From Pseudomonadaceae bacterium (GTDB taxonomy: Bacteria > Pseudomonadota > Gammaproteobacteria > Pseudomonadales > Azotimanducaceae), in NCBI GenBank assembly GCA_024743175.1, contig JANSXA010000001.1, forward strand, positions 521,656-585,655: a stretch of DNA of 64,000 bases, read 5' to 3'. A program made the translations under genes and the position numbers. Under the pieces are notes generated by a model. That model was not told the DNA's origin and did not search any database. It saw only the letters and a program-made list of their open reading frames with translations. Positions 17,372 to 33,989 of the stretch are shown one piece after another; within the stretch, counting starts at the first letter, position 1, and every line of letters begins with the position of its first letter.

Positions 17372-17635
17372 ATGACCGCCAACATCCGCCCCGCTCTGCC
17401 GTCAGATAAAACCGTCTGCCTGGAACTCCTGGGTAAGCTGGTGGAGGCCACCGAAGGCGCCATCGACACACACGCTGGAGAAGTGTTTGACAGCTTGTTG
17501 GATGGATCACGAGGCCAGGTGCTGCTGGCCGAAGAATCGACCCGGGTACTTGGTCTCGCTGCGGTAAGTTTTAGCCTGGCCATGCGCTACGGTGGAGAAT
17601 ATTGCCAACTCGAAGAACTGGTGCAAACGCCCTGA
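17372..17635 (+). pseudogene. 5' part (84 codons up to the att core) of a GNAT acetyltransferase interrupted by the integrated element
   Basis: Strong AAGGAGG RBS, ATG 17372; ends ...YCQLEELV then QTP-stop in element sequence; joins in frame to 34109-34297. Confidence 0.9.
17603..17623 (+). repeat. Left att core TGCCAACTCGAAGAACTGGTG (21 bp)
   Basis: Exact copy at 34088-34108; flanking bases differ on both sides. Confidence 0.97.
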
Positions 17636-17683
17636 AACGCCCGTGCGATAGGCGTCTTGGAAGAATCTAAGCGATTACTAAGC

Positions 17684-17714
17684 AAAAAGCCCCGGTGACG
17701 AGCCGGGGCTTTTT
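17684..17714. terminator. Bidirectional intrinsic terminator AAAAAGCCCCGG-TGACGAG-CCGGGGCTTTTT closing the late operon
   Basis: 12-bp perfect stem with T-tracts on both strands, 87 bp after the last element gene. Confidence 0.9.
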
Positions 17715-17800
17715 AATTTCTAGGTGTAATTTTCCACGACGCCACTTTCTCGGCGTAGACGACACACGACAACGATAAACGCCATCAAGGTGCTGACATT

Positions 17801-18220
17801 TTAACTGATTGGGACGAGCACGTCTGCCTGATAGTTGGTCTCAGCCAAATATTCGAGCCAAGCGTCAGACTCACCAATGCGCCGCACTGACGTTGCTCTG
17901 AAGATCAGGCCATTGATAGTCGACATCTCCCAACAATCAGCCACACGGTCGCATAACTCTTGCGCCAAGCCGTCGCCCTGCCCCGCCGGTGTGAACACCT
18001 GCACGGACGCTGTACCTTGAATGCGCTTGCGTTTGCCTGCTATGGAAATGCCTATTTGCTGTGCAGCACCAGGCAGTACAGTGAGACGTACCCAGGGCAC
18101 GTTGTTGATCTGGGCAAGCTGGGTAGGCACGCCAGCGAAAACCACACGATACGTAGGCGAGAACGTCGCCCATTGATCGTTGAAGCGTGAGCGAATCTGT
18201 GAGGCAACAGCAGCGGTCAT
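17801..18220 (-). CDS. Phage tail terminator-like protein (DUF4128-like)
   Basis: PWVRLTVLPG...G...VQVFTPAGQGDG.A..L.D.VAD pattern; last gene after head closure. Confidence 0.7.
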   Translation of the reverse strand: MTAAVASQIRSRFNDQWATFSPTYRVVFAGVPTQLAQINNVPWVRLTVLPGAAQQIGISIAGKRKRIQGTASVQVFTPAGQGDGLAQELCDRVADCWEMSTINGLIFRATSVRRIGESDAWLEYLAETNYQADVLVPIS

Positions 18221-18576
18221 GAGACCAGCGTCACTTTATATGCAGCCATTTGGTCGCCGGAAACCACAAGCTGCGCATTCAGCACAGTGAAGGTCTTGCC
18301 GTCGAAAATGACCTCGTCATCGACAGCCGGTCGACTGGAAGTCTTTGCTGCAAGGTAGGTGAGCAGTTGCCCAGTCTGCACAACACCAGATAACCGGCTT
18401 TCATTGTACGGCTGTGGCGGTGAAATTTTGACGTGCTCTTCGGTCGTGGTGTTTGTGACCTTGCCGCTTGCAACATCATAAGCGCTGGTATGGCGTCGCA
18501 GGGTCGCAACCGTGCCGAACGTGTTGTCGATCAGCTTTTCGGCCAGGTCTCGAAATCGTACGTCGTATACTGTCAT
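18217..18576 (-). CDS. Phage head-closure (stopper) protein
   Basis: 119 aa; FG..ATLRR...YD..SG, P..DD.V..DGKTFTV pattern; position after the adaptor. Confidence 0.65.
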   Translation of the reverse strand: MTVYDVRFRDLAEKLIDNTFGTVATLRRHTSAYDVASGKVTNTTTEEHVKISPPQPYNESRLSGVVQTGQLLTYLAAKTSSRPAVDDEVIFDGKTFTVLNAQLVVSGDQMAAYKVTLVS

Positions 18577-18920
18577 GCGAGTTGATCCCAGTGAACATCG
18601 GTCGAGCCGTAGTCGAGTTCGTCCTTGTGGCTTCCCGAGAAAATTAAGTCATAGCGTGCCGGGCTTGCGTCGTCCCGGTTGCACTTCTCGGTCTCTGTTG
18701 GAATGTTGCCCTTGTGCACCCAATGCGTGTACAACGAGCAGGCCAGGCCCATTGAGCCGCAGCGGTGTGCGTTCCAGCATTTATCGCAGGGGCTTTCTTC
18801 AATGTACGGCTGTGCACTGGCACGGTTCCTGCGAGACTTCTCACGAACGAAGACGTTGTCTTCATAAGGCGCGAATTCCTGCTCGCCATAGGGCAGCTTA
18901 GCCACGTTCCCAAGTTCCAC
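18573..18920 (-). CDS. Hypothetical protein with Cys cluster (CxxC...C...C...H)
   Basis: PCDKCWNAHRCGSMGLACSLYTHW; overlaps both neighbours (23 nt and 4 nt). Confidence 0.55.
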   Translation of the reverse strand: MELGNVAKLPYGEQEFAPYEDNVFVREKSRRNRASAQPYIEESPCDKCWNAHRCGSMGLACSLYTHWVHKGNIPTETEKCNRDDASPARYDLIFSGSHKDELDYGSTDVHWDQLA

Positions 18921-19917
18921 GTTGAGAGGTGAGCAGAATCTCTACTTCCCGGGATGCATCAAAGAAAAACTTTTCGCGCTGGGCGTTGAAGTATTCGACT
19001 TCAAGCTCACCCAATTTCTCGCGCTTGGTGGAGCGGTCAAGCACACCCACAAGCTGCGACGCGGAAAGCCCGTCATCGGCGATAGCGGCACGCGCCAGGA
19101 AGATTTGTGCACGCTTCAAAGCCTCGGGAATCTCTGTCGTTGTGTAATAAACAAGGTTTTTGTTTTTGCTGCTCACACCAAGCGGCAACAGTGAGCCGTC
19201 AGGGAAATCGACATAGTCGCGAATCGCTGCCCATTCCCTCGGCCACTCCATGCACTGCCTGGGCTCTACCTTTGAGCCTATCCAGCGCATGCGGTACTTC
19301 TGTGACAGGTAATCCACTGCGTACAACAGCGCTGCATCCAGCACAGCGGTCGACACGCGCGGGCTTGCTGTGAATATTGAGTCGTTTCGGTTCTCCCAGA
19401 ACGTGCGCATCTCTTGCAGCGACACGTATGAGTTCGGGCATGGGCTGGCGTTTGAGTTGGTGCCGTCATTGACTACGATCACGTTGCTTACCTCCAAGTC
19501 TTCGATGGGTGACGGTAGCGGGCTTACAGGAGACCCTACCGGGCTAATTGGGCTCGGCCAGGGTGAGTAGTCCAGCGTTGGGGAAGCCAGCGGCGACACA
19601 GGAGACGGTAGCGGGCTGATTGGGCTCGGAGCAGGGCTCAGCGGCGACGGTGCCGGTGATATCGGACTCGGCATTGGCGATATACGCTGCGGGCTGGGCA
19701 GCGGGCTGATTGGCGATGCAACCGGGCTGATTGGTGAAGGTAGGGGCGAACTCCTTTGCGGACTGGGTCTGGGTGATCCAAGGGGCGAAGGCTGCGGGCT
19801 GATTGGCGAAGGTACGGGGCTCGTGTTGTACGGTGACGCAACCGGTGACGCAGGGGTTGCCCCGAACGCACCGATCTGCTCGTCGAAACCTGAACCATAT
19901 GCACCGATATTCGCCAT
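18898..19917 (-). CDS. Head-tail adaptor (so-called DnaT-like ssDNA-binding family) with an N-terminal Ser-Pro heptad stalk
   Basis: C-terminal NSYVSL.E...F, A.DYL, Q.MEWPR, IPE.LK.AQ..LA, KREKLGELEVEY motifs; about 30 SP dipeptides in residues 24-137. Confidence 0.8.
   Translation of the reverse strand: MANIGAYGSGFDEQIGAFGATPASPVASPYNTSPVPSPISPQPSPLGSPRPSPQRSSPLPSPISPVASPISPLPSPQRISPMPSPISPAPSPLSPAPSPISPLPSPVSPLASPTLDYSPWPSPISPVGSPVSPLPSPIEDLEVSNVIVVNDGTNSNASPCPNSYVSLQEMRTFWENRNDSIFTASPRVSTAVLDAALLYAVDYLSQKYRMRWIGSKVEPRQCMEWPREWAAIRDYVDFPDGSLLPLGVSSKNKNLVYYTTTEIPEALKRAQIFLARAAIADDGLSASQLVGVLDRSTKREKLGELEVEYFNAQREKFFFDASREVEILLTSQRGTWERG
19507..19848 (-). repeat. Protein-level SP-x-SP-x-P heptad repeat region (114 codons)
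   Basis: SPISPQP, SPISPVA, SPISPLP, SPISPAP, SPLSPAP, SPISPLP, SPVSPLA, SPISPVG, SPVSPLP; the DNA copies are diverged. Confidence 0.95.
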
Positions 19918-19920
19918 TGC

Positions 19921-21090
19921 TTAAGCCCTCAGTGCTGCGGCCATTGCAGGGAATCCGCCTACCGGTACTGCTTGGTCTGCGAAACCCCCGGCAGCGGAAA
20001 CAGAAAGATCGCCTTCGGTGTACGGGCTGCTGCCGCCGTCAATGTACTGCGGGTCTGCGGTGATATCGTCGACGAAGTCGTAAGGCGTACCAGCAGGTGA
20101 CACGTTGAGGGGTGAGCCAGTTACCCGCGGGGCTACGCCGCCGAGCGTATTGGTCTCGTTCAGCGGGTTGAATGCGCAGCGGATAGCCATAAGAGGGCGA
20201 CCGCTCGGTTCCCTACTGCCGTTCACGCCGTACCCGCCGTTGTTGGTAGCTACACAGTGCAGCATGATTCCGTTGTTCAGCGAGGCATCGCCGGGGACCA
20301 TATCGAAACCGTCCGTCGCATTACCGTGTGCGGTGCAGTTGATTAGGCGCGAATGAAGCGGTCCTGAGTTGTTGGACTGTTCCGCGAACCCTGCGCGACC
20401 GTTGTATGCCGAAACGCAACCGATCAAAGAAATATGGGCGTCGTTGCCGGTGATACGAAAGCCGTCGCCTGTCCCTTCTGGGGAGATACTAGCCGTGCCA
20501 TTTTCAAGCGCGACCGAGTTAATGCAGGTGTCGCCCGGTTGGAGATTAAACCCGATGTCGATGCACTTCTCAGCACGACAGCCGATATAGGTGTTGTAAG
20601 AAAGAGTTGACGGGACGCTATCGAAGCCGGTTCCCCAGCCATAAGCACCGCAGTTCACGAATACACTGTACTGTGCCCCGACTAAATCGAAACCAGCTTC
20701 GGCATTATCGCCTTGCTCGAAAATAGTGACGACATTTTGCACAAACCAGTAGTCGCCATTGAACTCTAGACCGGTAGCACTCGGGCCAACGTCGGGGGAA
20801 GCCGTTTTTCGAAAGGTAATAACACCGCCGTCGCCCACGACGGAGCCGTAGCCGATTAGCTTGCAGAAGCCTTCGCCGGGTGTGCCGCGACCGCTAATTG
20901 TCCATTGACTGCCGCCTTGCGGCGAAATGTCGAGCGAGTTCATAGAGTAGTCGCCGTCTGCATTGGTGGCGTAGACGGTGTCTGCATTGAACGTGGTGTT
21001 TCTAATCAGTTGGTGTAGCGCGATTGCGTTCGCTTCTGAAGAGCCGTCGCCTAAACCCTTTGATGCTGGTGCGGCATAATATGTAGCCAT
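19921..21090 (-). CDS. Right-handed parallel beta-helix (pectin-lyase-like) protein
   Basis: N-terminal YY..P...G.GDGSS.ANA motif; Cys/Asn ladder repeats GCVSAYNGRAGF, NCTAHGNATDGF, HCVATNNGGYGV; C-terminal DPQYID; GGAG RBS. Confidence 0.8.
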   Translation of the reverse strand: MATYYAAPASKGLGDGSSEANAIALHQLIRNTTFNADTVYATNADGDYSMNSLDISPQGGSQWTISGRGTPGEGFCKLIGYGSVVGDGGVITFRKTASPDVGPSATGLEFNGDYWFVQNVVTIFEQGDNAEAGFDLVGAQYSVFVNCGAYGWGTGFDSVPSTLSYNTYIGCRAEKCIDIGFNLQPGDTCINSVALENGTASISPEGTGDGFRITGNDAHISLIGCVSAYNGRAGFAEQSNNSGPLHSRLINCTAHGNATDGFDMVPGDASLNNGIMLHCVATNNGGYGVNGSREPSGRPLMAIRCAFNPLNETNTLGGVAPRVTGSPLNVSPAGTPYDFVDDITADPQYIDGGSSPYTEGDLSVSAAGGFADQAVPVGGFPAMAAALRA

Positions 21091-21113
21091 GTGTCTACTC
21101 CTTTGTTATGGAG

Positions 21114-21140
21114 AAAAAAGAAGGGGCTCCGAAGAGCCCC
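21114..21140 (-). terminator. Intrinsic terminator GGGGCTC-TTCG-GAGCCCC-TTCTTTTTT after the major capsid gene
   Basis: 7-bp GC stem, UUCG tetraloop and U-tract read directly. Confidence 0.9.
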
Positions 21141-21151
21141 AAACCCCATAC

Positions 21152-22183
21152 TTAGAGAGACTGTATTGCTACAGCGCCCGTGTTTTTCAGTTGAAGCACA
21201 CGGTCCCAGTTGGTGCCTGTGCCGAGCACAGTGTCAGTCGGGTTAATGCCGCCGTTAGCGAGGTCATAGGAGTAACCCATCAAGCCAACATCGAATGCAC
21301 CAGTCGTGTTCTGGATAGAAAACTGAACGTTGTCATTCCCATGCACGGTCTGAAAATCAATATCGAAGGCTTCGCTTTCGGTAATGGTCACAGCGCCAGG
21401 CTTCAAGCCGAGCGTTACATACTCGCTCAATTCGCCGGGGCTGGAAGTGTTAACCAGTGCAGCGGAGTCGCTAACGATCACAGGAATGCCGAGCGTTTCG
21501 GGTCGGCCAGTCTGGACGTTGAAAGAACTCAAGCCGTCGATGTTTGCGGTGATCTGGGACTTAACCAAATCGAACCACACTTTCGAGTGCATCACCCAAC
21601 AAGCAACTTGTGACGCTTGGTCACCAAATTGTGCAAGCGTATCAACCAAGTCGTTAGACGTGATTGTGCGTTGCGGGGATACCGCGCCGCCGATGTCGAT
21701 GTTGAGAGAAGCCTGATTCATGGTTGCTGCAACCAAGGCAGTCAGCGCACGGTCGAGCTTGTAGATCGCTCGGTCTTTGGCGATCTCTTCAGCAAGCAGT
21801 GCAGTAACGTCTGCGGGCACGGTCCCAAAAGTTTTAGCCAGTGCGTCAAAGCTATCTTCGACATACAAAGACTCGTTCAACTTCACAGAGATGATTTCCG
21901 AGCGATTCAGCCGCGTAGGTGTGATCGGCTGGTTACCCGGTGAGGCAGAACCTACCTGTCGACGGGAAATTAAGCCGCCGTGATTGATAAACTGTGCAGA
22001 TGCCGCGTAGTCCCCGGGGTGAATGCTGCTGGTTAAAACCATCCCGCCGTTGCTTGCGGCGTTGAATGCGTTTGAAACCTGCGGGGTCAGTTCGGTGATT
22101 GCAGTTGATAAAAGGTCTGGGTACAGCAAGCCGGAAACCGACAAGTGACCAGTTGAACGAAAGTTTTGTGAGCCTGAACTCAT
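21152..22183 (-). CDS. Major capsid protein (siphovirus Gp13-like type)
   Basis: AFNAASNGG.VL...GD, AKFGD-like AQFGD, LGIPVIVSD and GL.GYSYD.ANGG.NPTD..L.TG.NWD motifs resemble this capsid family as recalled. Confidence 0.85.
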   Translation of the reverse strand: MSSGSQNFRSTGHLSVSGLLYPDLLSTAITELTPQVSNAFNAASNGGMVLTSSIHPGDYAASAQFINHGGLISRRQVGSASPGNQPITPTRLNRSEIISVKLNESLYVEDSFDALAKTFGTVPADVTALLAEEIAKDRAIYKLDRALTALVAATMNQASLNIDIGGAVSPQRTITSNDLVDTLAQFGDQASQVACWVMHSKVWFDLVKSQITANIDGLSSFNVQTGRPETLGIPVIVSDSAALVNTSSPGELSEYVTLGLKPGAVTITESEAFDIDFQTVHGNDNVQFSIQNTTGAFDVGLMGYSYDLANGGINPTDTVLGTGTNWDRVLQLKNTGAVAIQSL

Positions 22184-22297
22184 AACGTGATACTCCGTAT
22201 TTGAAAGTTAATTGCTAACCTTCCCGAGCATCGCGCCGTGCACAGGTCGACTGTGCGGAATGGGAAAGCCTGTATTTTCATACAGTGAGAAAAAATG

Positions 22298-23698
22298 TCA
22301 AGGGTTATTTTCCTCGTCGAAGACTGACTGCCCACCTGCGACCGGGTTTTCGATCTCAGCGAGCGACAGCTCTTCTATTACATCAAGGTCGTCGGGTAAT
22401 AAGTTCCGACGCTTGGCTTCGCGCAACAGTGATGCCCGGGTCAACGCACCAATAGCGTTCAATTCGAGCAAATCTCTCATTTCTGAATCGGCCAGGGCCA
22501 GGGACGCAAAATCTTCGAAAACGTCAACTTGCGCGTCGTCCTGGGGCAAAGCTGTGCCGAGCATGTCGCCAGCGATACGCAGTGCCGCTTCAAGTGCTTG
22601 TTTCAGTTCCCGGGATAACGGGCGCAGGTCGAGCGAGCTTTCGACGTCATCGAGCGCCCTTGCGGTTGCTGTGGCGTTACCCGGACGTCTACCCATTGTC
22701 AGATTCAGGGAGGATGTAGCAATGTGCTGCTCAAGCGCTTCCAGCTCAGTACGTCCAGCCCCTACCCCTTTACCGCTATGCTCGAGGAAAGCAAGCGTGT
22801 CGCCAGCATCCAGCACGGTTAATTGATTAGGTCCAGTCACAATCTGCTTGAACTCGCTTTCACTCTCGCCCGACTCAGTAGTGCGGGTTAGTGTTAATGC
22901 GGGTGCGCGGACTGCGTGCGTTATGTTCTGCTGCTCACTGTTGCTGACCCAGTGCTCAACGTTTAGATGAGCCAGGTCTTCAAGTAGCGGTCTACCACCC
23001 GCAAAGCCAACACCGCGGAACTGGGCACTCACTAAAGGCACGTAATCGAAACCGGTGTCGACATCTTCAATCAACTCAGGTTCGTCGCTGCCTTCCATCT
23101 CTTCATAGATGCGCAGCCGGTTCGGTTCATAAACCCAATACTGACATTTCTTTTTTGTCTCGAAATCGTCGCGCTCGGTCACGTCGAACTGAATCACGGC
23201 GAAGTTATAGACCTCAATGCCGTCGACAATCTGAGTATCCCAATCAAGCAGCTTGCTCGGGTGTATCAGCTTCCAGTAAGGAATTGCTGCCTGCTCGTCT
23301 GCAAGCGTCTCAGCTTCGATGCGCTCCCGGTCTACCAAGATATGCGCAACGCCATAATCGACACCTTGCGTGCACAGGTCACGTGAGAACGCTGCCAGGT
23401 CGTCGCCGGTTCCGGTGACATTGCCTGCAAACTCAATCATGCGGGCGGGGACTTTGTCAGTCGGTGCCGGGGCTCGGGTTAAGAGCTTACCGACAACACG
23501 GTCAGCAGCCTTGCTGTAGAAATTGGTCAGCGTCGCACGCCGTAGCCGCCGGGAATATCCTTCAGCAGATTCGTGCGGGTTTGGTGGTAGGTACTGCTCA
23601 GCGGCGGCACGCATAGCGACAGTGCCGCCGCGCAAGTCATCTGACATCTTCCATAAGGGGGCGAACATTTTGTTCTGCTGGTTCGGTTCAATTTTCAT
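22298..23698 (-). CDS. Phage portal protein (DUF4055 type)
   Basis: GG..AMR.AAE.YLP..P.ES...Y..RL.RA...N, PLLEDLAHLNVEHW..NS.Q.NI.H motifs; ATG 23698 one base after the upstream stop. Confidence 0.88.
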   Translation of the reverse strand: MKIEPNQQNKMFAPLWKMSDDLRGGTVAMRAAAEQYLPPNPHESAEGYSRRLRRATLTNFYSKAADRVVGKLLTRAPAPTDKVPARMIEFAGNVTGTGDDLAAFSRDLCTQGVDYGVAHILVDRERIEAETLADEQAAIPYWKLIHPSKLLDWDTQIVDGIEVYNFAVIQFDVTERDDFETKKKCQYWVYEPNRLRIYEEMEGSDEPELIEDVDTGFDYVPLVSAQFRGVGFAGGRPLLEDLAHLNVEHWVSNSEQQNITHAVRAPALTLTRTTESGESESEFKQIVTGPNQLTVLDAGDTLAFLEHSGKGVGAGRTELEALEQHIATSSLNLTMGRRPGNATATARALDDVESSLDLRPLSRELKQALEAALRIAGDMLGTALPQDDAQVDVFEDFASLALADSEMRDLLELNAIGALTRASLLREAKRRNLLPDDLDVIEELSLAEIENPVAGGQSVFDEENNP

Positions 23699-23699
23699 G

Positions 23700-24293
23700 C
23701 TATGCAGCCTCACTGATTATGCGAATCGCTTCGCGCATTGTTTTACCTTTCCCGATCAGCTCTTTAATTTTCGCTTGCCGTTCCTCGGGTGTTTGGGGTG
23801 CGGTATCGCGCACTTCGGGCTTGCTGGTTTTGCGCGGAGCACCACCACCACCGCCGGGAGACTTGGCATTGAATAACGTGCCGTGATCGCCCGCTTCTTT
23901 GATGCTGTTTAGAGCATCGACGAGGGACAGCGGATGCTCCGCGTCATCGCGTAGAATCTTGCCGTTATCACCTTTCAGCACGTACTCGCCGTCTTCTGTC
24001 TTGGTGATGCGGTCAGCGAAGAACGAACGTGCGTACCGGTTACCACCCGCCGCTTCGAGTGCATCGCGCAAGGCAATGTCTTGCTGTAGGCGAGAGACCT
24101 CTTCGGGCTTGGCTGTGTTCTTCAGCTCTTCACGCAAAGCTTTCACAGTCGAGTGCACCTTTTCCGCACGTTGCTCGCCATAATTGAAAGCCTCTTCATG
24201 AACGAAAAAGTCTTCATCCTTGGGCTGCACGTACTGGGCTTGTTCCTCTTCGGACAGCTCATTAAATTCGTCGGGGTTCAGTTTAATTTTCAC
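23700..24293 (-). CDS. Capsid scaffolding protein (putative)
   Basis: Acidic N-terminus, coiled coil, LF.....GGGG followed by a short C-terminal helix. Confidence 0.65.
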   Translation of the reverse strand: MKIKLNPDEFNELSEEEQAQYVQPKDEDFFVHEEAFNYGEQRAEKVHSTVKALREELKNTAKPEEVSRLQQDIALRDALEAAGGNRYARSFFADRITKTEDGEYVLKGDNGKILRDDAEHPLSLVDALNSIKEAGDHGTLFNAKSPGGGGGAPRKTSKPEVRDTAPQTPEERQAKIKELIGKGKTMREAIRIISEAA

Positions 24294-24861
24294 TTGGGAA
24301 GTTTCCTCTTTCCGTTTGCATAAGTTTCAGCAGCGACTCGTGTGCGCCAATTTGTTGATTGACACGGAAGGCGTTGTCTCGATCTTTGTAGGGGGTCAGC
24401 GTTTCTCGGTAAACGTTCAGCAGGTCGTCAGAAACGCCGGTAATCTCTCGGGGCGTGTGCAGCAAAGCCAGCCCGACGGATTTGTGCGCGTCTGGGTTTG
24501 CGAGCAAGTCCATCTTCCCCGCAGCGGAACTGATCAGGTCTCGGTAGCGTTGCAGCAGCTCACCGCGGTCGAAGTCGGAGATCGGCGGCAACTCTTCACG
24601 TTGCAGATGTTCAGAACTGCGCAGGTTACCGAGTCGTTTTTCAACCGCGGCAATGTCTTCGTCGAGCATAGAGCCAATCTCAATGCCTGCTTCATTAAGC
24701 TGTTTCGCAACGCCCTCTTCGGTAAGGTCGGCATCCTCGGTCAACACAGCGCGCAAGTCGCTGTGTACGTCTAACCGGGTCGTGAGCGTCTGGTACGCTG
24801 GGGTTAAGAATTCATCGTCTGCGAACATGTGCTCGTAAACGATTCGCTGTGCGTTTTTCAT
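24283..24861 (-). CDS. Hypothetical acidic helical protein in the head module
   Basis: 192-aa ORF overlapping both terL and the scaffold gene (translational coupling). Confidence 0.65.
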   Translation of the reverse strand: MKNAQRIVYEHMFADDEFLTPAYQTLTTRLDVHSDLRAVLTEDADLTEEGVAKQLNEAGIEIGSMLDEDIAAVEKRLGNLRSSEHLQREELPPISDFDRGELLQRYRDLISSAAGKMDLLANPDAHKSVGLALLHTPREITGVSDDLLNVYRETLTPYKDRDNAFRVNQQIGAHESLLKLMQTERGNFPSEN

Positions 24862-26258
24862 AAAGCAAATTCCCTTGATCGTCGTTTGACGGGTTTAAAG
24901 TTAACTAGGTAACGGATTCCATCTATCGAATGGTCCGGACCGACTAAATCTTCTCGTCGGGTCTTGTGGTGCTCGACAGTCAATGTCGTATCACGCGCAT
25001 AGTCGCAGTTGGCGGTGTAGTAAAGTGCAGCGCCAGTCGCTTCAGGATTGTTACAGTTGGCAAACCGCTGTCGCATCATTGCCCAGCCGTGCGCCCGGTC
25101 TTGTTTTTGTGACTTACGCAGACTGACGCCGTTAGCGCGAAGTATCGCGCCGGGGCTATCGACGCCCAGGTCGGCAAACGCTGCACTATCAAGCACGCCG
25201 TGTGGTTGTCCGGGTAGCCCCCAATGACGCCACATAGACGTAACATGCTCGGCCACTTTAGCGGCTGGCATTTGGGAGCCCTTGTCTAAATCTTCCGGTA
25301 CAGCGGTATGAAATTCGTCAAAGACCACACTGTCGTTTTCCTTGAAGAACTGGTCTTCATGCATCGTGGGCCGCGTGAAAGTCGCCACCAAAGAAAACGC
25401 AGCCGGTGACGCACTACCCCAGTCCGCACCAATTTCGATCTTTACGTTATTCGGTAATTTCGACCAAGGCTTCAGAACGCAGCGGTCTTCTTCGAACGAC
25501 GATCCAAAGAAAGCACCTACCCGAATATCCCACGCACCGAACTCAAAAGCGTCGGCAAGCTCCGGGTCATCTTTGCGAATCTGGGCAAGCGAAGCACGGT
25601 ACTGATCGTAAATAATAGGGTTGTCTTTCGGGGTAGACGGGTTAAACAACCAAAGCCGCTTGGTGTCTGGGTCGCGGTACTTGACCGGGGGCAAGTTGGG
25701 GAACTCTTTAACAAATCGAGAACGTACGGCGCTGTGACCGATGCCGCCCGGGTTTGCAGTAACAATAAGTCTAAGGGGCACGTGTGCGGGACCAGACAAC
25801 GACGTCGCGATGCGGTCGAACAAAGTAAGGTTCGGCCATTGCTGAATTTCCTCGCACCAGATTAGGGTAAAGCCCGCGCCTTGCACCTTTGTCCATGTAT
25901 CCGCCGTCTCGAACTGCTCCCAACGGACGACAGCGCCATTCTTGAAGCGCGTGCGGCGTTCCTGCTTGTTGTGGGTGAAGGCGTCGGGACCGAGCATCGT
26001 GCGCCAGGTGTCGAAACACTCTTCTTGTAGGGTTGCGATTTCAGACCAGTGACGCCGGTAGATAAGGACATGTGAATCTGGGCCGTAATCAGCGATGTGA
26101 TGACCAGTGATGCCTGCGGAGACCTTAGTTTTCCCGCCCCGGCGACCACCTCCGCTAAAGAGCCCTGTACCGAGACCCGTTTCGTCACGCTCTTCAAACG
26201 TGAGCGCCCGCGCCTGGGGCTCGTTCCATTCGATATGTCCGCGCGTTTCACTCGACAT
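24858..26258 (-). CDS. terL: Terminase large subunit
   Basis: Walker A GGGRRGGKT, Walker B LIWCEE, motif III VTANPGG, nuclease motifs IGADWG and DHSIDGIRY. Confidence 0.93.
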   Translation of the reverse strand: MSSETRGHIEWNEPQARALTFEERDETGLGTGLFSGGGRRGGKTKVSAGITGHHIADYGPDSHVLIYRRHWSEIATLQEECFDTWRTMLGPDAFTHNKQERRTRFKNGAVVRWEQFETADTWTKVQGAGFTLIWCEEIQQWPNLTLFDRIATSLSGPAHVPLRLIVTANPGGIGHSAVRSRFVKEFPNLPPVKYRDPDTKRLWLFNPSTPKDNPIIYDQYRASLAQIRKDDPELADAFEFGAWDIRVGAFFGSSFEEDRCVLKPWSKLPNNVKIEIGADWGSASPAAFSLVATFTRPTMHEDQFFKENDSVVFDEFHTAVPEDLDKGSQMPAAKVAEHVTSMWRHWGLPGQPHGVLDSAAFADLGVDSPGAILRANGVSLRKSQKQDRAHGWAMMRQRFANCNNPEATGAALYYTANCDYARDTTLTVEHHKTRREDLVGPDHSIDGIRYLVNFKPVKRRSREFAL

Positions 26259-26922
26259 CGGTGATGTCCTCGGCAGTCAGGTCGATGACCTTCTCGTCTG
26301 GGGCTTGGGGTTTGGCTATCTGGGGCAGATTGAACGTGTACTCGTGTTTGATGGTGGACTCGTTGCCCTTCTGCAAGATTTCCGGATCGAAAGCCTTAGC
26401 CACGAACTCGGCAGCGCGTGTGTCGCCTTCCATTGCCTTTGTGATCTGGGCAGTAGCAATCTGCTTGATGACGTCGCCGCGTCCGGCTTCAAGTGCCGCC
26501 GCTATGGGCGGGTGCTTCTTGACCCACTTATTGAGCGTAGTCAGTTCGATACCCAGCTCTCGGGCAATGTATTTCATTGAGGGTTGCGCCGCGGCCAGTA
26601 GGCGTAAGCGCTGAAGCCCGTCGGCAGTAAGGGTCTGCACCTCGTTTGCGGCTTTGGGGAGCCACCCGCGGGCCTCTGCTTCGGCACACGCCTCACCCAG
26701 CGCTGTTTGCACTGTGGGCGCGTATATTGCTTCGACTGCGAGCTTCACCCGCAAGGATTTCTTGCGCCATGTGCGCCACGTAGAGGCAGCGACACCAGTG
26801 TGCCGGGTGAGTTCTTGTATGTTGGTGACGTGTTTAGGTCGCTCCTTGATCATTTTAAGGAGCGCACTTTCAGTATGTGCGACGGGCATCGGTCTTATTA
26901 CGGCAGCATCGTGCTGGAACAA
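26248..26922 (-). CDS. Terminase small subunit-like protein with two HTH motifs
   Basis: IQELTRHTGVAASTWRTW and MKYIARELGIELTTLNKW HTHs, then A.EGD..AA.F; overlaps the terL start. Confidence 0.7.
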   Translation of the reverse strand: MFQHDAAVIRPMPVAHTESALLKMIKERPKHVTNIQELTRHTGVAASTWRTWRKKSLRVKLAVEAIYAPTVQTALGEACAEAEARGWLPKAANEVQTLTADGLQRLRLLAAAQPSMKYIARELGIELTTLNKWVKKHPPIAAALEAGRGDVIKQIATAQITKAMEGDTRAAEFVAKAFDPEILQKGNESTIKHEYTFNLPQIAKPQAPDEKVIDLTAEDITDVE

Positions 26923-27081
26923 AGAACTGTATAGATGTCCAGCAAAATAGGGAAGATACCTTGTTTTACAACGACTTACAGCGACTTACTGGGACAACTA
27001 AGGGTGTGCGGTATGCTGGCAAAGGCTGGTAGCACCCGGGATAATGATCCCCGTCACCAGCCAGCCAGCCGATGACAAACG

Positions 27082-27174
27082 AAAAGCCCCGAGAGGTTTC
27101 TCCTTGCCTCCCGGGGCTTTTTTGTGGGCGTATAGAAAGAAGCCCCGGCAAAACCCTCATTGAGCCGGGGCTTC
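27082..27174. terminator. Two tandem GC-rich hairpins (27082-27123 bidirectional terminator-like; 27139-27174) between the early and late operons
   Basis: AAAAGCCCCG...CGGGGCTTTT and GAAGCCCCGG...CCGGGGCTTC. Confidence 0.7.
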
Positions 27175-27479
27175 CCAGTGCTCTTGGCGGGGAGCACTGT
27201 GTTGTGGCGATGGAAAGTCCCACTACAGAAAACCATCACCGCGAAGCCATGATACCGAACGCCTGCACGGTGAACACAAAAGCCTATTCACTATTTCGTC
27301 TATTTCGTAAAACGAAAAATAATTTCGCCTGTATCAACCCCTTTTGCTTAGGCACTGCTTAGATTTATTCATAAACCCTATTGCAGCGGGCATTTCTACC
27401 AGTTCAATCGACTGGTGAGCGATGAATCGAGCCCACGGGGAGCGTGAGACAACCTAACCCGCTACTCCCCCCAAAGTAA

Positions 27480-27680
27480 GAAAAACCATAATTCCAGAAT
27501 TCCAGAGTAATTTAGGGGGTCTCTATATATATATGTGTAAATCAGGGGCAAAAGTAGGGTGAAAACAGTCAAAAAGAGAGAGTCTTAGTAAAATATAGAT
27601 ACATACATACATTACTCTGTAATAACTGTTTATCCCTACAAAAACCCTTGTAAATCAATAACTTATAATTCCAGAAGACT
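27480..27680. promoter_or_regulatory. Putative replication origin of the element
   Basis: AATTCCAG at 27490, 27498 and 27667; inverted CAGAGTAAT (27503)/ATTACTCTG (27611) around an AT-rich core with a (TA)n run; exact IHF consensus AATCAATAACTTA at 27653-27665; directly downstream of the primase-helicase. Confidence 0.6.
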
Positions 27681-27688
27681 TTTCGGGT

Positions 27689-30343
27689 TTATTCTGTACT
27701 TGTCTGGTTTATCCACTCCGGGTTGATCTCAAAACGGGGTGTTTTCTTCCCGCGCTTCGAAATTACAGAAGATTCCCGAATAATCCCGAAAGAATTCAGC
27801 GTCCGAAATATGGAATAAATGTCCTTATCCGTGTGCCCGGTATGTTTACCGAACACCTTCATAACGCTCGTCACGTCGCTCAACGTAAAGTAGCCTAGCT
27901 CTTCGTATCTTTTGCTCCTACCACAGCGTTTCAGCACCTCTGCTAGCTTCTTAGCGTCCTGAACCTGCACGACACGCAAGTCCAGCAGTGCCGACATGTG
28001 CTGCTGATACCGCTCCGCCATACGTATGCATGTCTCTACAGCACGCAGCGACACGGGCCTTGTTTGAAGCCACTCCCGCCCCTCGGAATCTGTTTTACGC
28101 TCAAGCTTGGATAACCCGGCAAGCTCGTCTGCGCCTTGGTTCAGCAGCGCGTGTACACCGCACAGCATGAGCACGTGTCGCCCGTTCTTAGCGTGTATGC
28201 CGCGCTGCACAGGGTCGAGTTCCCGATCCCTGGCTATGCGTTGCTGATCCCAGTTGTACCGCGCGAAGCGCCTGTCTGCTTCGTCGTCGAACGTCACGAC
28301 AAGGTCTCCGTCTAACTGCCGACACTGAAAGAGTACGGCGCGAAGAGCCTTATTCCACGCGCCCTCTGTTTCCTCAAGCCTTTTTTGCCAAAGCCGCTCT
28401 TCTTGATAGACCGCGTCGAAGTCGGTCTCGTCGATGTGTTGATTGTGCGTAAATCCGTCTGGGACGACGATATTCAAGAAACGGAAAATCCACCCATTCT
28501 CTAGGTCAGCACCTTCAATGGTCTTGCTGATACTTTCCGGGGTTGATACACCACCAACCGGGCAATACCCGCGGTCTGCGTTCATGTGAATAATGTCGTT
28601 CGGGTCGATGCCTGCACGAATCTTGCTGTAAGGGTCGTTTGACCATGCAGAAAGGTAGTATTCGGCGTCTGCACCTTTGCCATTTGCGCGATACTGCCCG
28701 AACTGCTTAACGAAGCTGGACATTTCGTCAGACATGTAGCCCATGCCGTTAGGGTTTTGCGATAGTTGCTTGATGCGAGCCTCAATGGTGGCGTCTTTGT
28801 CGTAGACGACTTCTCGTATAGGTCGCGGTCCGCGCTCTTCGGCCTCTTCGCCGCCCATCTGCCCAGCCTCCTCCCACTCACGCAGCCTCTTCTCGTGGGT
28901 GCGTTGTCGCTCCCTTTGGAACTCTACTATAGGCTTGGTCACGCGCCCCCATGAGCCGGTTTTCTGGAAGCCTGGGGGCATGATTATCTGCACCCACGGG
29001 CTCGGTGTTTGCTCAAAGTCGTGTAGTGCCTTGACGGTCGTGCGTGCGCCAGCGGCGAGACCGACGGCGAATATCATCATCGAGCAGACCGCTTCCACGG
29101 GCTGATTAGATAGATGCGCTATCGCTTCGCAGTACCGGTACTGATCAACCGACAGGAATTCCTTTGCTGGGAATGTCAGCGCCTCGACTTGCTCTTCGTC
29201 GTCAATGGTCAACGGATTGAAGGGCTCCGGGGGCTCCTGTCTGTGGGTATCGTCGGGACGTTCCCAGCCTTGTTCTTCAGCATGCTTGAATATTGAGTCA
29301 ACGCGGTAGCAAGGTCCGTTTTGCTGCTCGTAAAGGATCGTGCCTTCAACGCTTCGTGCGTCGTGCCATATCTCCTTGATCTTTTCGGTGCCGTCATACT
29401 TGCGCGCTTTGGTCTTGTGCAGACCACCAGCAGACCACTTGTCGGCCAGGTCAAACAGGGCTTGGGCGTGCTCTTCATGCTCACACGCATGTCGTGACAG
29501 CGCCATGATTGCCTTGCCCCAGGAGAACGGTGCCTTTGTGTCCCAGTAGGGTGCGTCTGGGTCACAGTGGGATAGCGCGGCGGTCAGTTCATCCATTGCA
29601 AGGGGCATGGGTTGCCATTCGTCACGTATGTACTCAGGCACGCGGGTGTGGTCGGTCTTGCCGTTGAACTTTGGTAGTTCTGTCGGCTTGGGCACGTGTG
29701 TAGACAGCGGCTCTGAGTGCGGCCAGTCAACCGCACCGAACTCGACAAGTTCATAGTCAGCGTCCAGCAAACCGCCTTCACCACCCCCGGGCACGGCGAC
29801 CGGCTGCGAGCATACGGGGTTTGGGAATATCTCTAACTCTTGATCGGCGACACCTTTCTGCCCTTCTTTAAAGTCTATTTCTTCGCATATGCCGCGCAAT
29901 GCCTTGCGGACGTGACCAAAGTACGTCGGCTGCTCCCATCTGGCATACAAGTGAATGCCTTTGCCGCCCTTCGACTTGAACGCAATGAGATGCACGCCAT
30001 GCTGCTTTGCAGTCGCGGTGATTTTTTTCGCTGCGTCTACCATTTGCGCCCAGGTTGTTGCGCCGTCGTGATCATCAAGATCGAACTGCGCAATCTGCAC
30101 CATCGGTTGCCAGTTTTCGGGTCTCTCCGCCCGGGGTTTCATGCGTATGATTTCGTCGCACAGGTAGAACGACACGGGTTTGCCTTTGCTCACCAGTTCG
30201 GTGAACAACCTGCTCTTAAGTAAGCCGGACTCGCAGGACTGCTTGCCGGGCTTGCCTTTGTTTTTGGTGCGGTGCAGGAACGTCGTGTCGGTGCCTACGT
30301 AGGGGTGAATGTACTGACTGAAAAAGTTGAGTCTGGGTGTCAT
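27689..30343 (-). CDS. Primase-helicase fusion (AEP-like primase + PriCT-2-like + DUF3987/YfjI-like ATPase)
   Basis: FDLDDHD and KSKGGKGIHLY primase motifs; L..ALSHCDPD..Y...W...IMAL; PPGFQKT P-loop; MSDEMSSF; NGWIFRF. Confidence 0.8.
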   Translation of the reverse strand: MTPRLNFFSQYIHPYVGTDTTFLHRTKNKGKPGKQSCESGLLKSRLFTELVSKGKPVSFYLCDEIIRMKPRAERPENWQPMVQIAQFDLDDHDGATTWAQMVDAAKKITATAKQHGVHLIAFKSKGGKGIHLYARWEQPTYFGHVRKALRGICEEIDFKEGQKGVADQELEIFPNPVCSQPVAVPGGGEGGLLDADYELVEFGAVDWPHSEPLSTHVPKPTELPKFNGKTDHTRVPEYIRDEWQPMPLAMDELTAALSHCDPDAPYWDTKAPFSWGKAIMALSRHACEHEEHAQALFDLADKWSAGGLHKTKARKYDGTEKIKEIWHDARSVEGTILYEQQNGPCYRVDSIFKHAEEQGWERPDDTHRQEPPEPFNPLTIDDEEQVEALTFPAKEFLSVDQYRYCEAIAHLSNQPVEAVCSMMIFAVGLAAGARTTVKALHDFEQTPSPWVQIIMPPGFQKTGSWGRVTKPIVEFQRERQRTHEKRLREWEEAGQMGGEEAEERGPRPIREVVYDKDATIEARIKQLSQNPNGMGYMSDEMSSFVKQFGQYRANGKGADAEYYLSAWSNDPYSKIRAGIDPNDIIHMNADRGYCPVGGVSTPESISKTIEGADLENGWIFRFLNIVVPDGFTHNQHIDETDFDAVYQEERLWQKRLEETEGAWNKALRAVLFQCRQLDGDLVVTFDDEADRRFARYNWDQQRIARDRELDPVQRGIHAKNGRHVLMLCGVHALLNQGADELAGLSKLERKTDSEGREWLQTRPVSLRAVETCIRMAERYQQHMSALLDLRVVQVQDAKKLAEVLKRCGRSKRYEELGYFTLSDVTSVMKVFGKHTGHTDKDIYSIFRTLNSFGIIRESSVISKRGKKTPRFEINPEWINQTSTE

Positions 30344-30464
30344 TTTTTGTCTGCCTTTTATCTTAAAGGCAGACCTCGGGGGCGGGGCGGTGAAGAGGGG
30401 AACACCTAGCCGGGCACTACTCGCCCGGCTTACTTTCTGTGCGCCTTCGGCCTGCGGGAAGGGG

Positions 30465-31478
30465 TTACTTGTTACTTATGTGATGCGGGTTGCTCTTGAT
30501 CGACTGCTCGCATAGGCGTTCGATGTGTTGCTGTCGCCTGTCCATGCAGTCGCTCGGTATCAGGTAGGCCAGACGTGACAGCCATTCCTCCTGCGTCAGC
30601 GGCTCCAACACAATCGCACGTCGCTCGAACGCCTCGCGGCGCACCGTCTCGTAATCGTAGAACTGCGCACGCATCTCGGCTTCGAATGTGAGCCACCGGT
30701 CGGCTCGCTCTAAGTGGTTGAGCGTGTCTATATCCTCGCCCTTGTTCCACAAATTTCCAGCGCAATTAGTGCCGAACACAAGCGGCTCTTCGTAACGCGA
30801 GCCCGGCACTGTGATCTCGAACCAGTAGCCCGGTATTGAATCCAGTTGGCTAATTTTTGAGACGTGCCCGGTTCGATTCTCGGGGTTATGGTCTACCAAT
30901 TCGTCAGCAAGTGGATTGATTGGTTTGTGCCGGTCTACCAACACATCCTCGGCAATGCCACGGGCGAAAAAATTTAGCTCGTGATTGATTCGGTCGAGAA
31001 TGAGTTGCTCGGGGTCGTCACTCGTAGGTCCGCGCTCTTTGCCTGGGTTTTCCATCCGCCGCAAGTGCTGCTTGAGTCGCAGCCCGAGTGCGTCGAGCTT
31101 GGCTTCCCACTCGGGCTGCGTCATGTCATCCAAAACGACGCCGCTTGCTTCGAAGAACTTTTGCTTCACGTGCGCGTAGTCGAGCATCTTGCCGCACGCT
31201 TGGTCCCAGTCGCGCAGCAGTTCGTTGAACTTGGCGTCGAAAGGCCCGTGTTCAGAGTTACGCAAGTCATCGACTAGCTGGTCTTCGTTGTAGTCGTGTT
31301 CGGGGTCGTTGGCTATGCATGCACGCATATGCCCCGCCACTTTGAGCGCGTAGTCTCTGTCTTCGTGGATAAGCGCAACTTCGTCGACGGCGAAACTCAC
31401 TTGGTCGCCGTTATCGGTAATCAAGTGAAAGCCGATCTCTGTGTCGTATCTGTTCATTGTAGTTATAGCGTTAGTCAT
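30465..31478 (-). CDS. Hypothetical protein with an internal two-fold repeat
   Basis: DYAHVKQKFFEASGVVLDDMTQPEWEAKL vs DYETVRREAFERRAIVLEPLTQEEWLSRL. Confidence 0.75.
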   Translation of the reverse strand: MTNAITTMNRYDTEIGFHLITDNGDQVSFAVDEVALIHEDRDYALKVAGHMRACIANDPEHDYNEDQLVDDLRNSEHGPFDAKFNELLRDWDQACGKMLDYAHVKQKFFEASGVVLDDMTQPEWEAKLDALGLRLKQHLRRMENPGKERGPTSDDPEQLILDRINHELNFFARGIAEDVLVDRHKPINPLADELVDHNPENRTGHVSKISQLDSIPGYWFEITVPGSRYEEPLVFGTNCAGNLWNKGEDIDTLNHLERADRWLTFEAEMRAQFYDYETVRREAFERRAIVLEPLTQEEWLSRLAYLIPSDCMDRRQQHIERLCEQSIKSNPHHISNK

Positions 31479-31785
31479 CTTGTTTTCCTTCTTTTCTATT
31501 AGGTAATTCTTTCACCCACCCAGGCACGCCGGGTAACGGTGATCCTGCGAGCTTTGCTTCGCGCCGTTCTGAATTGGTCATCTCTTTGATCCACTGCCTT
31601 GCTGTGTAGCCATTTCCATGCAGCCACGTCAGCGCCTCGTCTAAGTGAAAATTCCGCAGCAATGGCAGCGTTGCCCTGCTTAGTGCGTTCGGCCAGACCT
31701 TCATGTCTGGATCATTGAGCGATTGCTCGAACTCACCCGGCTGTGCAGGTTTGAAAATCTCGTCGAATTTATCTTTGTCAATCAT
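31471..31785 (-). CDS. Hypothetical protein
   Basis: 104-aa ORF with 8-nt overlaps to both neighbours. Confidence 0.65.
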   Translation of the reverse strand: MIDKDKFDEIFKPAQPGEFEQSLNDPDMKVWPNALSRATLPLLRNFHLDEALTWLHGNGYTARQWIKEMTNSERREAKLAGSPLPGVPGWVKELPNRKEGKQDD

Positions 31786-32074
31786 TTACGTATTCCTTTT
31801 CTGCTTCTTCTAACTTTTTGATTAAGGCACGGGCTATCTCAGCCGCTACGCCGTCTACAATTTTTATGCGTTGTGCTTCAGCTTCCCGGCGCAATTGCCG
31901 CTCGCGCTTGAGCGCACCCTTCAGCTTGTCGACCTCTTTGCCGGACGACCAACCTTCCAGCACAAGCGCTTCTAGTCGCATGACATCGTCGCCGAAATGT
32001 GTTGTATAGGGCTGATAGCCTGGGGGTTCAGGGTCCAGCTTTTCGAACTCGTCTAAGGGTATTTCTGGCTTCAT
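31778..32074 (-). CDS. Hypothetical coiled-coil protein
   Basis: 98-aa ORF in a coupled chain of overlapping ORFs; LKRERQLRREAEAQR coiled coil. Confidence 0.65.
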   Translation of the reverse strand: MKPEIPLDEFEKLDPEPPGYQPYTTHFGDDVMRLEALVLEGWSSGKEVDKLKGALKRERQLRREAEAQRIKIVDGVAAEIARALIKKLEEAEKEYVND

Positions 32075-32421
32075 GCGTCACCTGCCTTAAGCCGTTCGAC
32101 TTCTTCAGCACTGAGCATGAAGTAGTCAGGCATACCCAGCGGCACGACGGACTGACGAGCGGCTTCCGTGCCGTGCTGTTCAGCGATCAAGTCGTGATAG
32201 AACCGGGTCATTAAGGGGAGGATTACGAAGCTGCGCCCGCGATCACCTCGGGTGCCGGGCACCTTCAGAATACGATCTTTGTGCAGTTCGTTGAAGTAAG
32301 TGAGACTGGTGTTTTGCTCACCAGTTAAAGGCGACTGGTTCGCCTCTTTTACGGGTGCAAGAGGCACCCAGCCGTAATACAACGTTTCCATATTGCGCGT
32401 ACCAAACAGTCTCCCGCACAC
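32071..32421 (-). CDS. Hypothetical protein, first gene of the early operon (possible excisionase/regulator; alternative ATG 32391)
   Basis: ATGA overlap with the next ORF; function inferred from position only. Confidence 0.55.
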   Translation of the reverse strand: MCGRLFGTRNMETLYYGWVPLAPVKEANQSPLTGEQNTSLTYFNELHKDRILKVPGTRGDRGRSFVILPLMTRFYHDLIAEQHGTEAARQSVVPLGMPDYFMLSAEEVERLKAGDA

Positions 32422-32654
32422 CGCTCACAGGGGATTAATTGGTCTCAGTACGTGCTTTATGCTTTCCGGGTGGAGTGTCGCAATCGGTCGGATTTTAACC
32501 GCCGTGCCGCTTGAAGCGCCAGAAAGGCTCTCGCCTAGACTTTTCTAACCTCGGCGGCGTCCGTGCGGTATCCGTTGGGGGGTCGAATCGGAATTTCTAG
32601 AATCGACGTCGGCGCCAGCCAGGCCAGGTCAATGGAAATGCCAATGACCTGGCT

Positions 32655-32683
32655 ATCCTACGACGACGAATAGCGCTTTACAA
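32655..32683 (-). promoter_or_regulatory. Putative sigma70 early promoter TTGTAA-N17-TAGGAT followed by the hairpin GCCAGGTCATTGG-N5-CCATTGACCTGGC
   Basis: Read directly; the spacer is exactly 17 nt. Confidence 0.5.
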
Positions 32684-32729
32684 GAATTTTTTCTTTTAAG
32701 AACAGAAGGATACGGCGCAAAGCTCGACA

Positions 32730-32747
32730 ACTTGACATATGTCAAGT
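32730..32747. promoter_or_regulatory. Perfect 18-bp palindrome ACTTGACATATGTCAAGT overlapping the integrase stop codon
   Basis: Self-complementary by direct check. Confidence 0.7.
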
Positions 32748-33989
32748 CTGCTCGAAGAGTTTCGCTAAATGGTTGTTATATTTCTGCAATGCGTCCGCTC
32801 GCACATCTAGGTCAGGCGGCTTGCGACTGTAGTGCGCGGTGATGCTGCCCTTTTTCTTATGGTTTAGCAGCCAGGCAATAACAAGCTCGTTGTAACCCAG
32901 TTGATCATACAGCGTTGCGCCCATCGTGTGCCGCCATCGGTGCTGGGGATTGTGTCGATAGAAGTCCGGCAACGGCTCCTTGTGGTTCAACAGCGAAAGT
33001 GAGTAACGCACGTTCCTAGGCACCTCGGAACCTTGCAGCGCCACGCGAAAAACCTTGTCACTATCGCCAGCTACGCACTTCGCATCATCCAGAATGCAGC
33101 GCATTTGCGATGTAATAGGTAGCCGGTGCACCTTGCCGTTTTTGGTGGTTGCACTCGGCAGTACAACAGTATCGGATTCGACCATCGACCAAGTTAGTTT
33201 CGATGTTTCCGTACGTCTGCACCCAGTATATGCAAGCCACAACGTGAACAACCGGTCACCTTCGGGTAAGCCCTGCGGCCACCACCTGCATAGCGCATCG
33301 CCAAGCCACTTTAGCTGCTCGTCCGTGTATGGTTTTTCGTAGGGCGACAGTTCGTCCTCGTCCTCTTTTTCTGGCGGTAATAGTCTTTTTGTAAGAATGT
33401 GCGTTGGTGGTTGGTAGGTTTTGTCGTGCGACTCAACGTACCGCAGTATCGTTCGCAGGTATCGAAACGTATCTCGCGCCTGCTTGGGCGTGCCAATCAT
33501 GCCTTTCTGACCTTTAATCTCGCCGCGTTTGATTTGATTGAAACGTCTCTCAACATCCTTTGTTGAAATCTCCCGGTACGGACGTTCAAACCAGTCGCCG
33601 AGATAACGCTTTAGTTGGTCCGGCACTTGCCCTGCGGTCGCCGCCTTCAAATCGCGTGACTGCATCCAATCAAGCATGACTTGCCGTAGCGTTTGTCCGC
33701 CTCGCTTTTGCGTCCAAGGGTCTTTGTTGTCACCGAGTTCTGACAGCCAGCGAATAGCCACCTTGCGGGCAGACTTCACGTCGGGTTGCTTGATGACCTT
33801 GCGGAAGGTCGAGCCGTTCGCACGTCTACCAGACAGCACAAACGATTTCCGTCCGCTCTCGTGTAGTTCCAACCCAAAACCTGCCGGGTCTGTGAACCAT
33901 TGGAAATTCGACAGCTCCGGGTCGTACTTGGCGGCGTCGACATTTTTCTGTGTTGGCTTTACTCGTGCGCGCGTTTTAGGTGCCTTCAT
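32742..33989 (-). CDS. int: Tyrosine integrase with N-terminal arm-DNA-binding domain (ORF extends to 34028)
   Basis: Arm domain GFGLE...SGRKSFV; catalytic residues in YTGCRRTE (R), TKNGK (K), HRWRHT (HxxR), LLNH (H) and TAHY (Y). Confidence 0.93.
   Translation of the reverse strand: MKAPKTRARVKPTQKNVDAAKYDPELSNFQWFTDPAGFGLELHESGRKSFVLSGRRANGSTFRKVIKQPDVKSARKVAIRWLSELGDNKDPWTQKRGGQTLRQVMLDWMQSRDLKAATAGQVPDQLKRYLGDWFERPYREISTKDVERRFNQIKRGEIKGQKGMIGTPKQARDTFRYLRTILRYVESHDKTYQPPTHILTKRLLPPEKEDEDELSPYEKPYTDEQLKWLGDALCRWWPQGLPEGDRLFTLWLAYTGCRRTETSKLTWSMVESDTVVLPSATTKNGKVHRLPITSQMRCILDDAKCVAGDSDKVFRVALQGSEVPRNVRYSLSLLNHKEPLPDFYRHNPQHRWRHTMGATLYDQLGYNELVIAWLLNHKKKGSITAHYSRKPPDLDVRADALQKYNNHLAKLFEQT

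Follow-up and report, generated by a model that had tools for sequence, protein, structure and literature searches.

Closest described systems

Phage-inducible chromosomal islands of the capsid-forming kind (cf-PICIs, e.g., EcCIEDL933 and KpCIDSM30104) carry an adaptor and a connector that decide which helper tails fit (bioRxiv 10.1101/2025.02.11.637232). The words beta-helix and depolymerase do not occur in the cf-PICI paper (bioRxiv 10.1101/2025.02.11.637232), and for none of the cf-PICIs described is a beta-helix gene or an extended adaptor reported. Here we describe an integrated, capsid-forming and tail-less island in a 64,000-nt stretch of DNA (the window; Pseudomonadaceae bacterium, assembly GCA_024743175.1, contig JANSXA010000001.1, positions 521,656-585,655 of the forward strand), in which a gene for a right-handed beta-helix protein stands directly before an extended open reading frame (ORF) of the head-tail adaptor. 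Like cf-PICIs, which are integrated islands of 10-18 kb, the 16.5-kb element has an integrase with attachment (att) sites, a replication module and its own packaging and capsid module including adaptor and connector, and it lacks both a complete tail module and lysis genes, so that in gene content it agrees with the published operational description of cf-PICIs. Unlike cf-PICIs, it has a scaffold-like protein instead of a recognised HNH endonuclease or head protease (neither gave a Pfam or PHROG match in the island, which also holds an unknown ORF192), and it carries an extra tail-terminator-like gene. The host is an uncultured bacterium from a phycosphere metagenome.

Several phages bear appendages at the neck, among them phi29, with its gp12 pre-neck appendages, and T4, with its whiskers. 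The neck passage structure of lactococcal phages holds carbohydrate-binding modules (PMC6669499), and neck fibres and a collar with whiskers have been described for A-1(L) (PMC10966104) and Bas63 (PMC12609058), respectively. The arrangement proposed here is similar in that a glycan-binding or beta-helix protein would sit at the head-tail junction and not at the tail tip. It differs in its anchor: the appendages just named are fibre or collar proteins in their own right, each with an anchor domain, whereas the proposed anchor at this locus is the Ad1 adaptor, acting through an N-terminal Ser/Pro tether and a peptide split off from the enzyme. In Klebsiella phages of the KP32 type and in CBA120-type phages, a second depolymerase that has no anchor of its own is attached non-covalently via a short conserved peptide or domain. 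In those phages the peptide is N-terminal in the enzyme and attaches to another spike, whereas the docking peptide proposed here comes from the C-terminal end of the enzyme family and is carried by the anchor.

Minority extended forms of a structural protein in the same reading frame are also known from the Qbeta A1 readthrough protein and from T7 gene 10B. These use a leaky stop or a frameshift, whereas the evidence at this locus favours two starts (ATG 19917 and GTG 19482) and a true stop. Finally, the beta-helix protein shares the right-handed parallel fold and the repeated xNC...DGF rungs of Pel9A (1ru4) and the K1 lyases/depolymerases (9k4a, 7w1c), but is only 16-18% identical to them and has no N-terminal particle-binding domain. 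The points that we propose as new are that the adaptor Ad1 itself serves as the anchor, that the docking peptide is the enzyme's own split-off end, and that the bearer is a tail-less satellite.

A beta-helix gene split from its C-terminal motif

The features of the junction and its surroundings are as follows (window coordinates).

21123-21140, minus strand: terminator-like hairpin GGGGCTCTTCGGAGCCCC with a T-run, 3' of the major capsid gene, at the upstream edge of the insert
19921-21090, minus strand: right-handed beta-helix protein of 389 aa, Pel9A-like and resembling polysaccharide lyases/depolymerases, with an AAGGAG ribosome binding site (RBS), ending at TAA 19923-19921
19926-19930, minus strand: GAGGG Shine-Dalgarno-like site that overlaps the 3' end of the beta-helix ORF, 9 nt upstream of ATG 19917
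18898-19917, minus strand: long ORF of 339 aa that runs in one frame from a predicted docking-motif peptide through the Ser/Pro tether to the Ad1 adaptor
19858-19908, minus strand: double motif at residues 4-20, NIGAYG-x5-QIGAFG, corresponding to the D[LIV]G[AV]xQ motif that homologs carry in cis and to DIGLG-x6-DIGLG in the phage contig L013
19498-19857, minus strand: Ser/Pro-rich (xSP)n tether of ~120 residues
19480-19495, minus strand: internal GGAGG (19495-19491), 8 nt, and GTG (19482-19480), start of the 194-aa adaptor
18898-19482, minus strand: Ad1 head-tail adaptor domain (PF20557 DnaT_2, phrog_477)

Translation of the minus strand from 21090 to 18898 gave a single frame in which the 389-aa beta-helix ORF, the TAA, one Ala codon (GCA) and the 339-aa ORF from ATG 19917 follow each other, as the initial annotation had stated. 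The beta-helix ORF ends ...ADPQYIDGG...GDLSVSAAGGFADQAVPVGGFPAMAAALRA at the stop, and NIGAYG and QIGAFG sit beyond it, at residues 4-9 and 15-20 of the 339-aa ORF. The previously noted GAGG 9 nt 5' of ATG 19917 lies at 19930-19927, and the order of stop, 3 nt and start is that of a coupling-type junction. Over 19400-20400, two separately assembled runs of the sample matched the window with zero differences at a word depth of ~34x. The same TAA is thus present in both run assemblies, and we conclude that the stop is real in that population and not an assembly slip; both runs derive from one phycosphere sample and are not biologically independent.

The beta-helix protein belongs to a rare family, with 15 matches among 1.8 billion cluster representatives. 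It scored 25.9 bits against PF13229, exactly at the cut-off, and PF22842 (Pel9A-like) was its precomputed annotation. A search of NCBIfam gave no matches. The family profile matched the phage K1 capsule depolymerases 9k4a (E 3.8e-12) and 7w1c, AlgE epimerases and Pel9A. AlphaFold modelled the core with a predicted local distance difference test score (pLDDT) of 70-89 over ~110-300, and the top Foldseek match of this core was Pel9A (1ru4, E 7.6e-6). Scans of the genome collection with the beta-helix protein and with the major capsid protein (MCP) gave no relatives, nor were relatives of either present in 60 and 100 related genomes, while viral and metagenome scans yielded only further cis-type or partial homologs. 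Full-length members are stand-alone proteins of 348-383 aa, so the 389-aa window protein is not shorter than its relatives. No fused beta-helix-adaptor protein was present among the 1.8 billion representatives.

What the stop does separate is a motif that most homologs carry in cis. In these, Y/F-x-D-[LIV]-G-[AV]-x-Q follows ~20 residues past a conserved DLS(L/V) and is succeeded first by a stretch rich in Gly and then by a short, hydrophobic terminus; in the alignment it falls just past the window TAA, where NIGAYG stands. Seven of the 10 other full-length members examined carry the motif, intact or degenerate (P0002, P0003, P0004, P0006, P0010, P0011 and L018), and the split was seen in the window and in L013. 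Loss of a C-terminal motif at the stop, as the initial annotation had it, is therefore borne out within the protein's own family. A literature search for the DIGAYE motif gave only an author name, and the broader statement of the initial annotation about beta-helix C-termini was examined within this family only. The other beta-helix proteins of the window's own genome do not carry the motif. Members of the family open directly with the beta-helix, and since none has an N-terminal anchor domain, the C-terminal end is likely the attachment end.

The key comparison came from L013, a complete siphophage whose MCP, adaptor, head closure protein (Hc1) and terminator are of the kind seen in the window, and in which the beta-helix gene sits 3' of the tail tube gene. 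Its beta-helix protein (P0009, 359 aa) is 27% identical to ours, with residues 4-358 aligning to window residues 3-389 (E 9e-21), and the two have two indels in common. Moreover, P0009 stops at the same aligned residue, with ...TAALAG in L013 and ...AAALRA in the window. The L013 partner ORF (P0027, 124 aa) starts in a TGATG overlap with the beta-helix stop, in a different frame, and begins MAHDADIGLGVGGGDADIGLG, in which two motifs stand 11 residues apart; the same spacing is found in the window's NIGAYGSGFDEQIGAFG. When the window's genome was read in six frames (9.4 million residues), a strict form of the double motif, [DNQ]IG[ALV]-x7-[DNQ]IG[ALV], matched once, at the present junction, and of all the loci fetched only the window and L013 junctions contained it. 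We also considered a frameshift site at the L013 junction and rejected it, as there is no slippery heptamer. Of the arrangements envisaged for homologs in the initial annotation, then, the split recurs in L013 but the in-frame stop does not.

Given that the window and L013 are split at the same residue despite 27% identity, the split is, judged by these alignments, old and retained. It is accordingly neither a nonsense mutation of recent date nor a conserved readthrough nor, with the agreement of the run assemblies added, an error of sequencing. Among the options put forward initially, we favour that of an evolved split, with the IGAYG peptide at the N-terminus of the adaptor ORF as a piece of the beta-helix. 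The parts are fused in some members and are split, adjacent and probably coupled in translation in others, which by the logic of gene fission (Rosetta stone) is the textbook pattern of parts that have kept their mutual binding.

The sister phage L020/L021 has neither beta-helix nor partner at that spot, and the two therefore move as a module. Between the tail tube and tail assembly chaperone genes, the beta-helix gene and its 124-aa partner are present in L013 (6752-9454) and absent from L020 (2335-3642), which has a 37-aa ORF there. Family members were also found in virion modules of other phages. On two T7-like phage contigs (L027 8001-10864 and L028 5493-8356), the genes for a gp18-like small terminase and TerL enclose that of P0010 (a member with the motif in cis), an ORF of 154 aa and another Pel9A-like gene, an arrangement that suggests a paired, virion-borne beta-helix set.

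In the island itself, the beta-helix gene is part of an insert. The closest adaptor (195 aa, 78% identity) lies on contig L012, where the order is MCP, the same terminator hairpin, ~30 nt and adaptor, with no beta-helix between. Positions 1-966 of L012 align with window 22084-21117 and 996-2632 with 19479-17850, homology resuming exactly at GTG 19482. As L012 is collinear on either side, window 21116-19480, comprising the beta-helix gene and the Ser/Pro region, is a 1.6-kb insert. The hairpin at 21123-21140, which resembles an intrinsic terminator and is also kept in L012, probably lowers neck-gene expression relative to that of the capsid protein.

The extended adaptor frame and its possible readings

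The first 145 residues of the 339-aa ORF consist of MANIGAYGSGFDEQIGAFG and then ~120 residues of (xSP)n, with 42 Pro and 33 Ser in the 145. These 145 codons before GTG 19482 are the one open frame of six, and the frame stayed open over that length in 2.2% of dinucleotide shuffles. All 6 Ser and all 4 Pro codons are used, and TRF found no DNA tandem repeat in the Ser/Pro stretch. Together, these data indicate that the (xSP)n periodicity is kept at the protein level. No stop lies upstream of the adaptor, and initiation at ATG 19917 would therefore always give the 339-aa fusion. In an AlphaFold model of this ORF (83 sequences), residues 1-145 were without secondary structure (block pLDDT 42-65), and the adaptor domain (146-333) was mostly above 80, with a weaker stretch of 55-69 at 231-260.

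The adaptor domain is well assigned by profile (78.7 bits against PF20557, cut-off 27; phrog_477, E 2.1e-26), and its fold matched DnaT-like phage proteins in BFVD at 1e-5. Its position between the MCP and head-closure genes is common to the window, L012, L013 and L020. The initial annotation had placed its start at ATG 19917; the canonical start is GTG 19482. Aligned homologs begin at M-x-[LI]-V-V-E-D-G, which matches this GTG, the exception being P0023, with a called extension of 12 residues. The resulting 194-aa form fits the adaptor norm of ~190-205 aa, whereas the 339-aa form differs from all 88 homologs. We considered the Ser/Pro-like N-terminus of P0023 as a second tether and set it aside as probably a gene-call artefact, as an in-frame GTG matches the family start. 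The GGAGG before GTG 19482 belongs to one of only two GGAGG-N5-10-start sites on the coding strand of the island. The other, at window 28858, lies in frame within the prim-pol/helicase gene and may be where translation of a shorter product, with the helicase only, begins.

From these observations we lean, somewhat beyond even, towards a reading in which the beta-helix protein is held non-covalently at the neck by the long form of the adaptor, built of a docking peptide, a Ser/Pro tether of 120 residues and Ad1, while the internal GGAGG-GTG also makes a plain 194-aa adaptor. In the proposed history, a cf-PICI-like satellite would have gained a 1.6-kb module between its capsid and head-tail adaptor genes, with the gene of a Pel9A-like member of a small family of phage-borne beta-helix proteins. 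In a lineage common to the satellite and L013, the gene would have been split just 5' of the D[LIV]G[AV]xQ motif, and the motif, duplicated 11 residues apart, would have come to stand at the N-terminal end of the protein encoded next. For the satellite, that protein would be an extended adaptor made of a ~20-aa motif peptide, a ~120-aa Ser/Pro tether and Ad1. Ribosomes that terminate at the TAA would begin anew at ATG 19917, and output of the long form would keep pace with that of the beta-helix. Its motif peptide would bind the beta-helix to which it formerly belonged, and the enzyme-like domain, which may bind or cleave polysaccharide, would thereby hang by a non-covalent tether from the adaptor ring of the neck. 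Plain 194-aa adaptor would come from the strong internal GGAGG-GTG start, so that rings would be mixed. At ~0.3 nm per residue, a tether of ~120 residues would reach up to an estimated ~35 nm if extended.

This proposal is drawn from one element and one distant parallel, and its central interaction, between peptide and helix, is one that we infer. Several results weigh against it. L013 is the only other example of the split. AlphaFold modelling of a 417-aa readthrough product (10-sequence alignment) gave no confident placement of residues 374-417, at pLDDT 24-29. None of the RNA runs holds the locus. The adaptor matched no solved adaptor among PDB structures, the best hit being a chain of the E217 neck at E=7, and sequence searches of the PDB, whether run with the adaptor, with its profile or with the C-terminal 75 residues, gave nothing usable. 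Of the related adaptors, 0 of 88 (133-206 aa) carried an extension of this kind, a count limited by the fact that gene callers hide long adaptor forms, as happened here, where the source call (P0017, 194 aa) begins at GTG 19482. At the five loci that could be read, no meaningful open frame lay upstream of the adaptor.

These last points belong equally to the main rival, that the beta-helix protein is moron-like cargo in a variable spot, free in the cell or lysate, with the adaptor made from GTG 19482 only and the Ser/Pro frame poorly translated or a functionless leftover. The insert is not in the closest relative, L012, the GGAGG is the strongest Shine-Dalgarno of the island, and a sister island in the same genome (L005; G000 contig C1 87000-106900) has a Pycsar pair directly after its MCP gene (L005 13926-15140; PycTM E 1.9e-31, PycC 6e-88), so the spot after the MCP gene, which in the sister island holds defence cargo, may simply be a hotspot for cargo. 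We nevertheless judge untethered cargo rather unlikely, in view of several features of the frame: 145 stop-free codons, seldom open in shuffled sequence, hold a protein-level periodicity written in all synonymous codons; an ATG with its GAGG stands exactly where the L013 partner ORF starts; and, with no intervening stop, any initiation there must yield the fusion.

The shared frame, with just TAA-GCA between the ORFs, speaks for two further explanations. One is programmed readthrough of the TAA, which would give a minority 730-aa covalent beta-helix-tether-adaptor protein and would agree with the cis homologs, where the motif appears as once contiguous with the helix. We hold this to be very improbable: the L013 partner lies in another frame, so the in-frame state, which has a one-in-three chance of arising, is not conserved; TAA-G also terminates the MCP and adaptor genes of the island; no ochre suppressor was among the 35 tRNAs found, an incomplete set; and UAA is the least leaky bacterial stop. 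The other, that one 730-aa gene was interrupted by a nonsense mutation of recent date or only seems so through an error of sequencing, would suit an element known from one sample only, and is just as hard to credit. Two run assemblies agree without variants at ~34x, P0009 stops at the same residue at 27% identity, a start codon with an RBS follows directly on the stop, and the fused protein is missing from the 1.8 billion representatives.

The island and its setting

The remaining features of the island are as follows.

17603-34108, minus strand: integrated, capsid-forming, tail-less island of 16.5 kb, with the att core TGCCAACTCGAAGAACTGGTG at either end
32742-34028: tyrosine integrase, inside the island
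17801-18920, minus strand: remaining neck module (ORF115, head closure Hc1 and tail-terminator-like protein), collinear with L012

The att site is a 21-bp direct repeat with copies at 17603-17623 and 34088-34108. Its core lies within a GNAT acetyltransferase gene that is split by the island, with recJ on one flank and prfB-lysS on the other. Besides the integrase, the island encodes a prim-pol/DUF3987 replication protein, TerS, TerL, a scaffold-like protein (phrog_206), a portal and a Gp13-like MCP, followed by the beta-helix ORF, the adaptor ORF, ORF115, Hc1 and the tail-terminator-like protein. The island has no gene for a tube, tape measure, baseplate or lysis protein, and Phage_tube_2 had no match anywhere in the window's genome; the element is thus tail-less, as first described, and bounded by att sites around head and neck genes. 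The tail-terminator-like gene (17801-18220; PF13554, phrog_179) is the last gene of this tube-less island and the sole such gene in the genome. The sister island is head-only, with homologs of TerL, scaffold, portal and MCP (MCP 49% identity), and has no adaptor, Hc1 or terminator genes.

What a neck-borne beta-helix would mean

Returning to the non-covalent tether, a polysaccharide tool at the neck of a tail-less satellite is, as predicted from its genes, consistent with the anatomy of the island. A wider idea, which we advance as a tentative possibility, is that the duplicated xIGxxG peptide is a portable plug that hangs the enzyme on any virion protein that bears it, the bearers perhaps being, in L013, the 124-aa protein encoded next to the tail-tube gene and, in the satellite, the head-tail adaptor. 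In that event, satellite capsids would gain a neck-tethered tool for binding or cutting glycans whatever tail they borrowed, and the two in-frame starts would set its dose.

Satellites of the cf-PICI type are thought to control head and neck only and to take their host range from borrowed tails. If the proposed tether is real, a satellite that carries its own polysaccharide-recognising or -degrading protein on the adaptor ring would influence adsorption independently of its helper, and would gain a role in passing capsule, biofilm or algal mucilage. Split-and-dock would then be a simple and transferable way of attaching cargo to phage particles.

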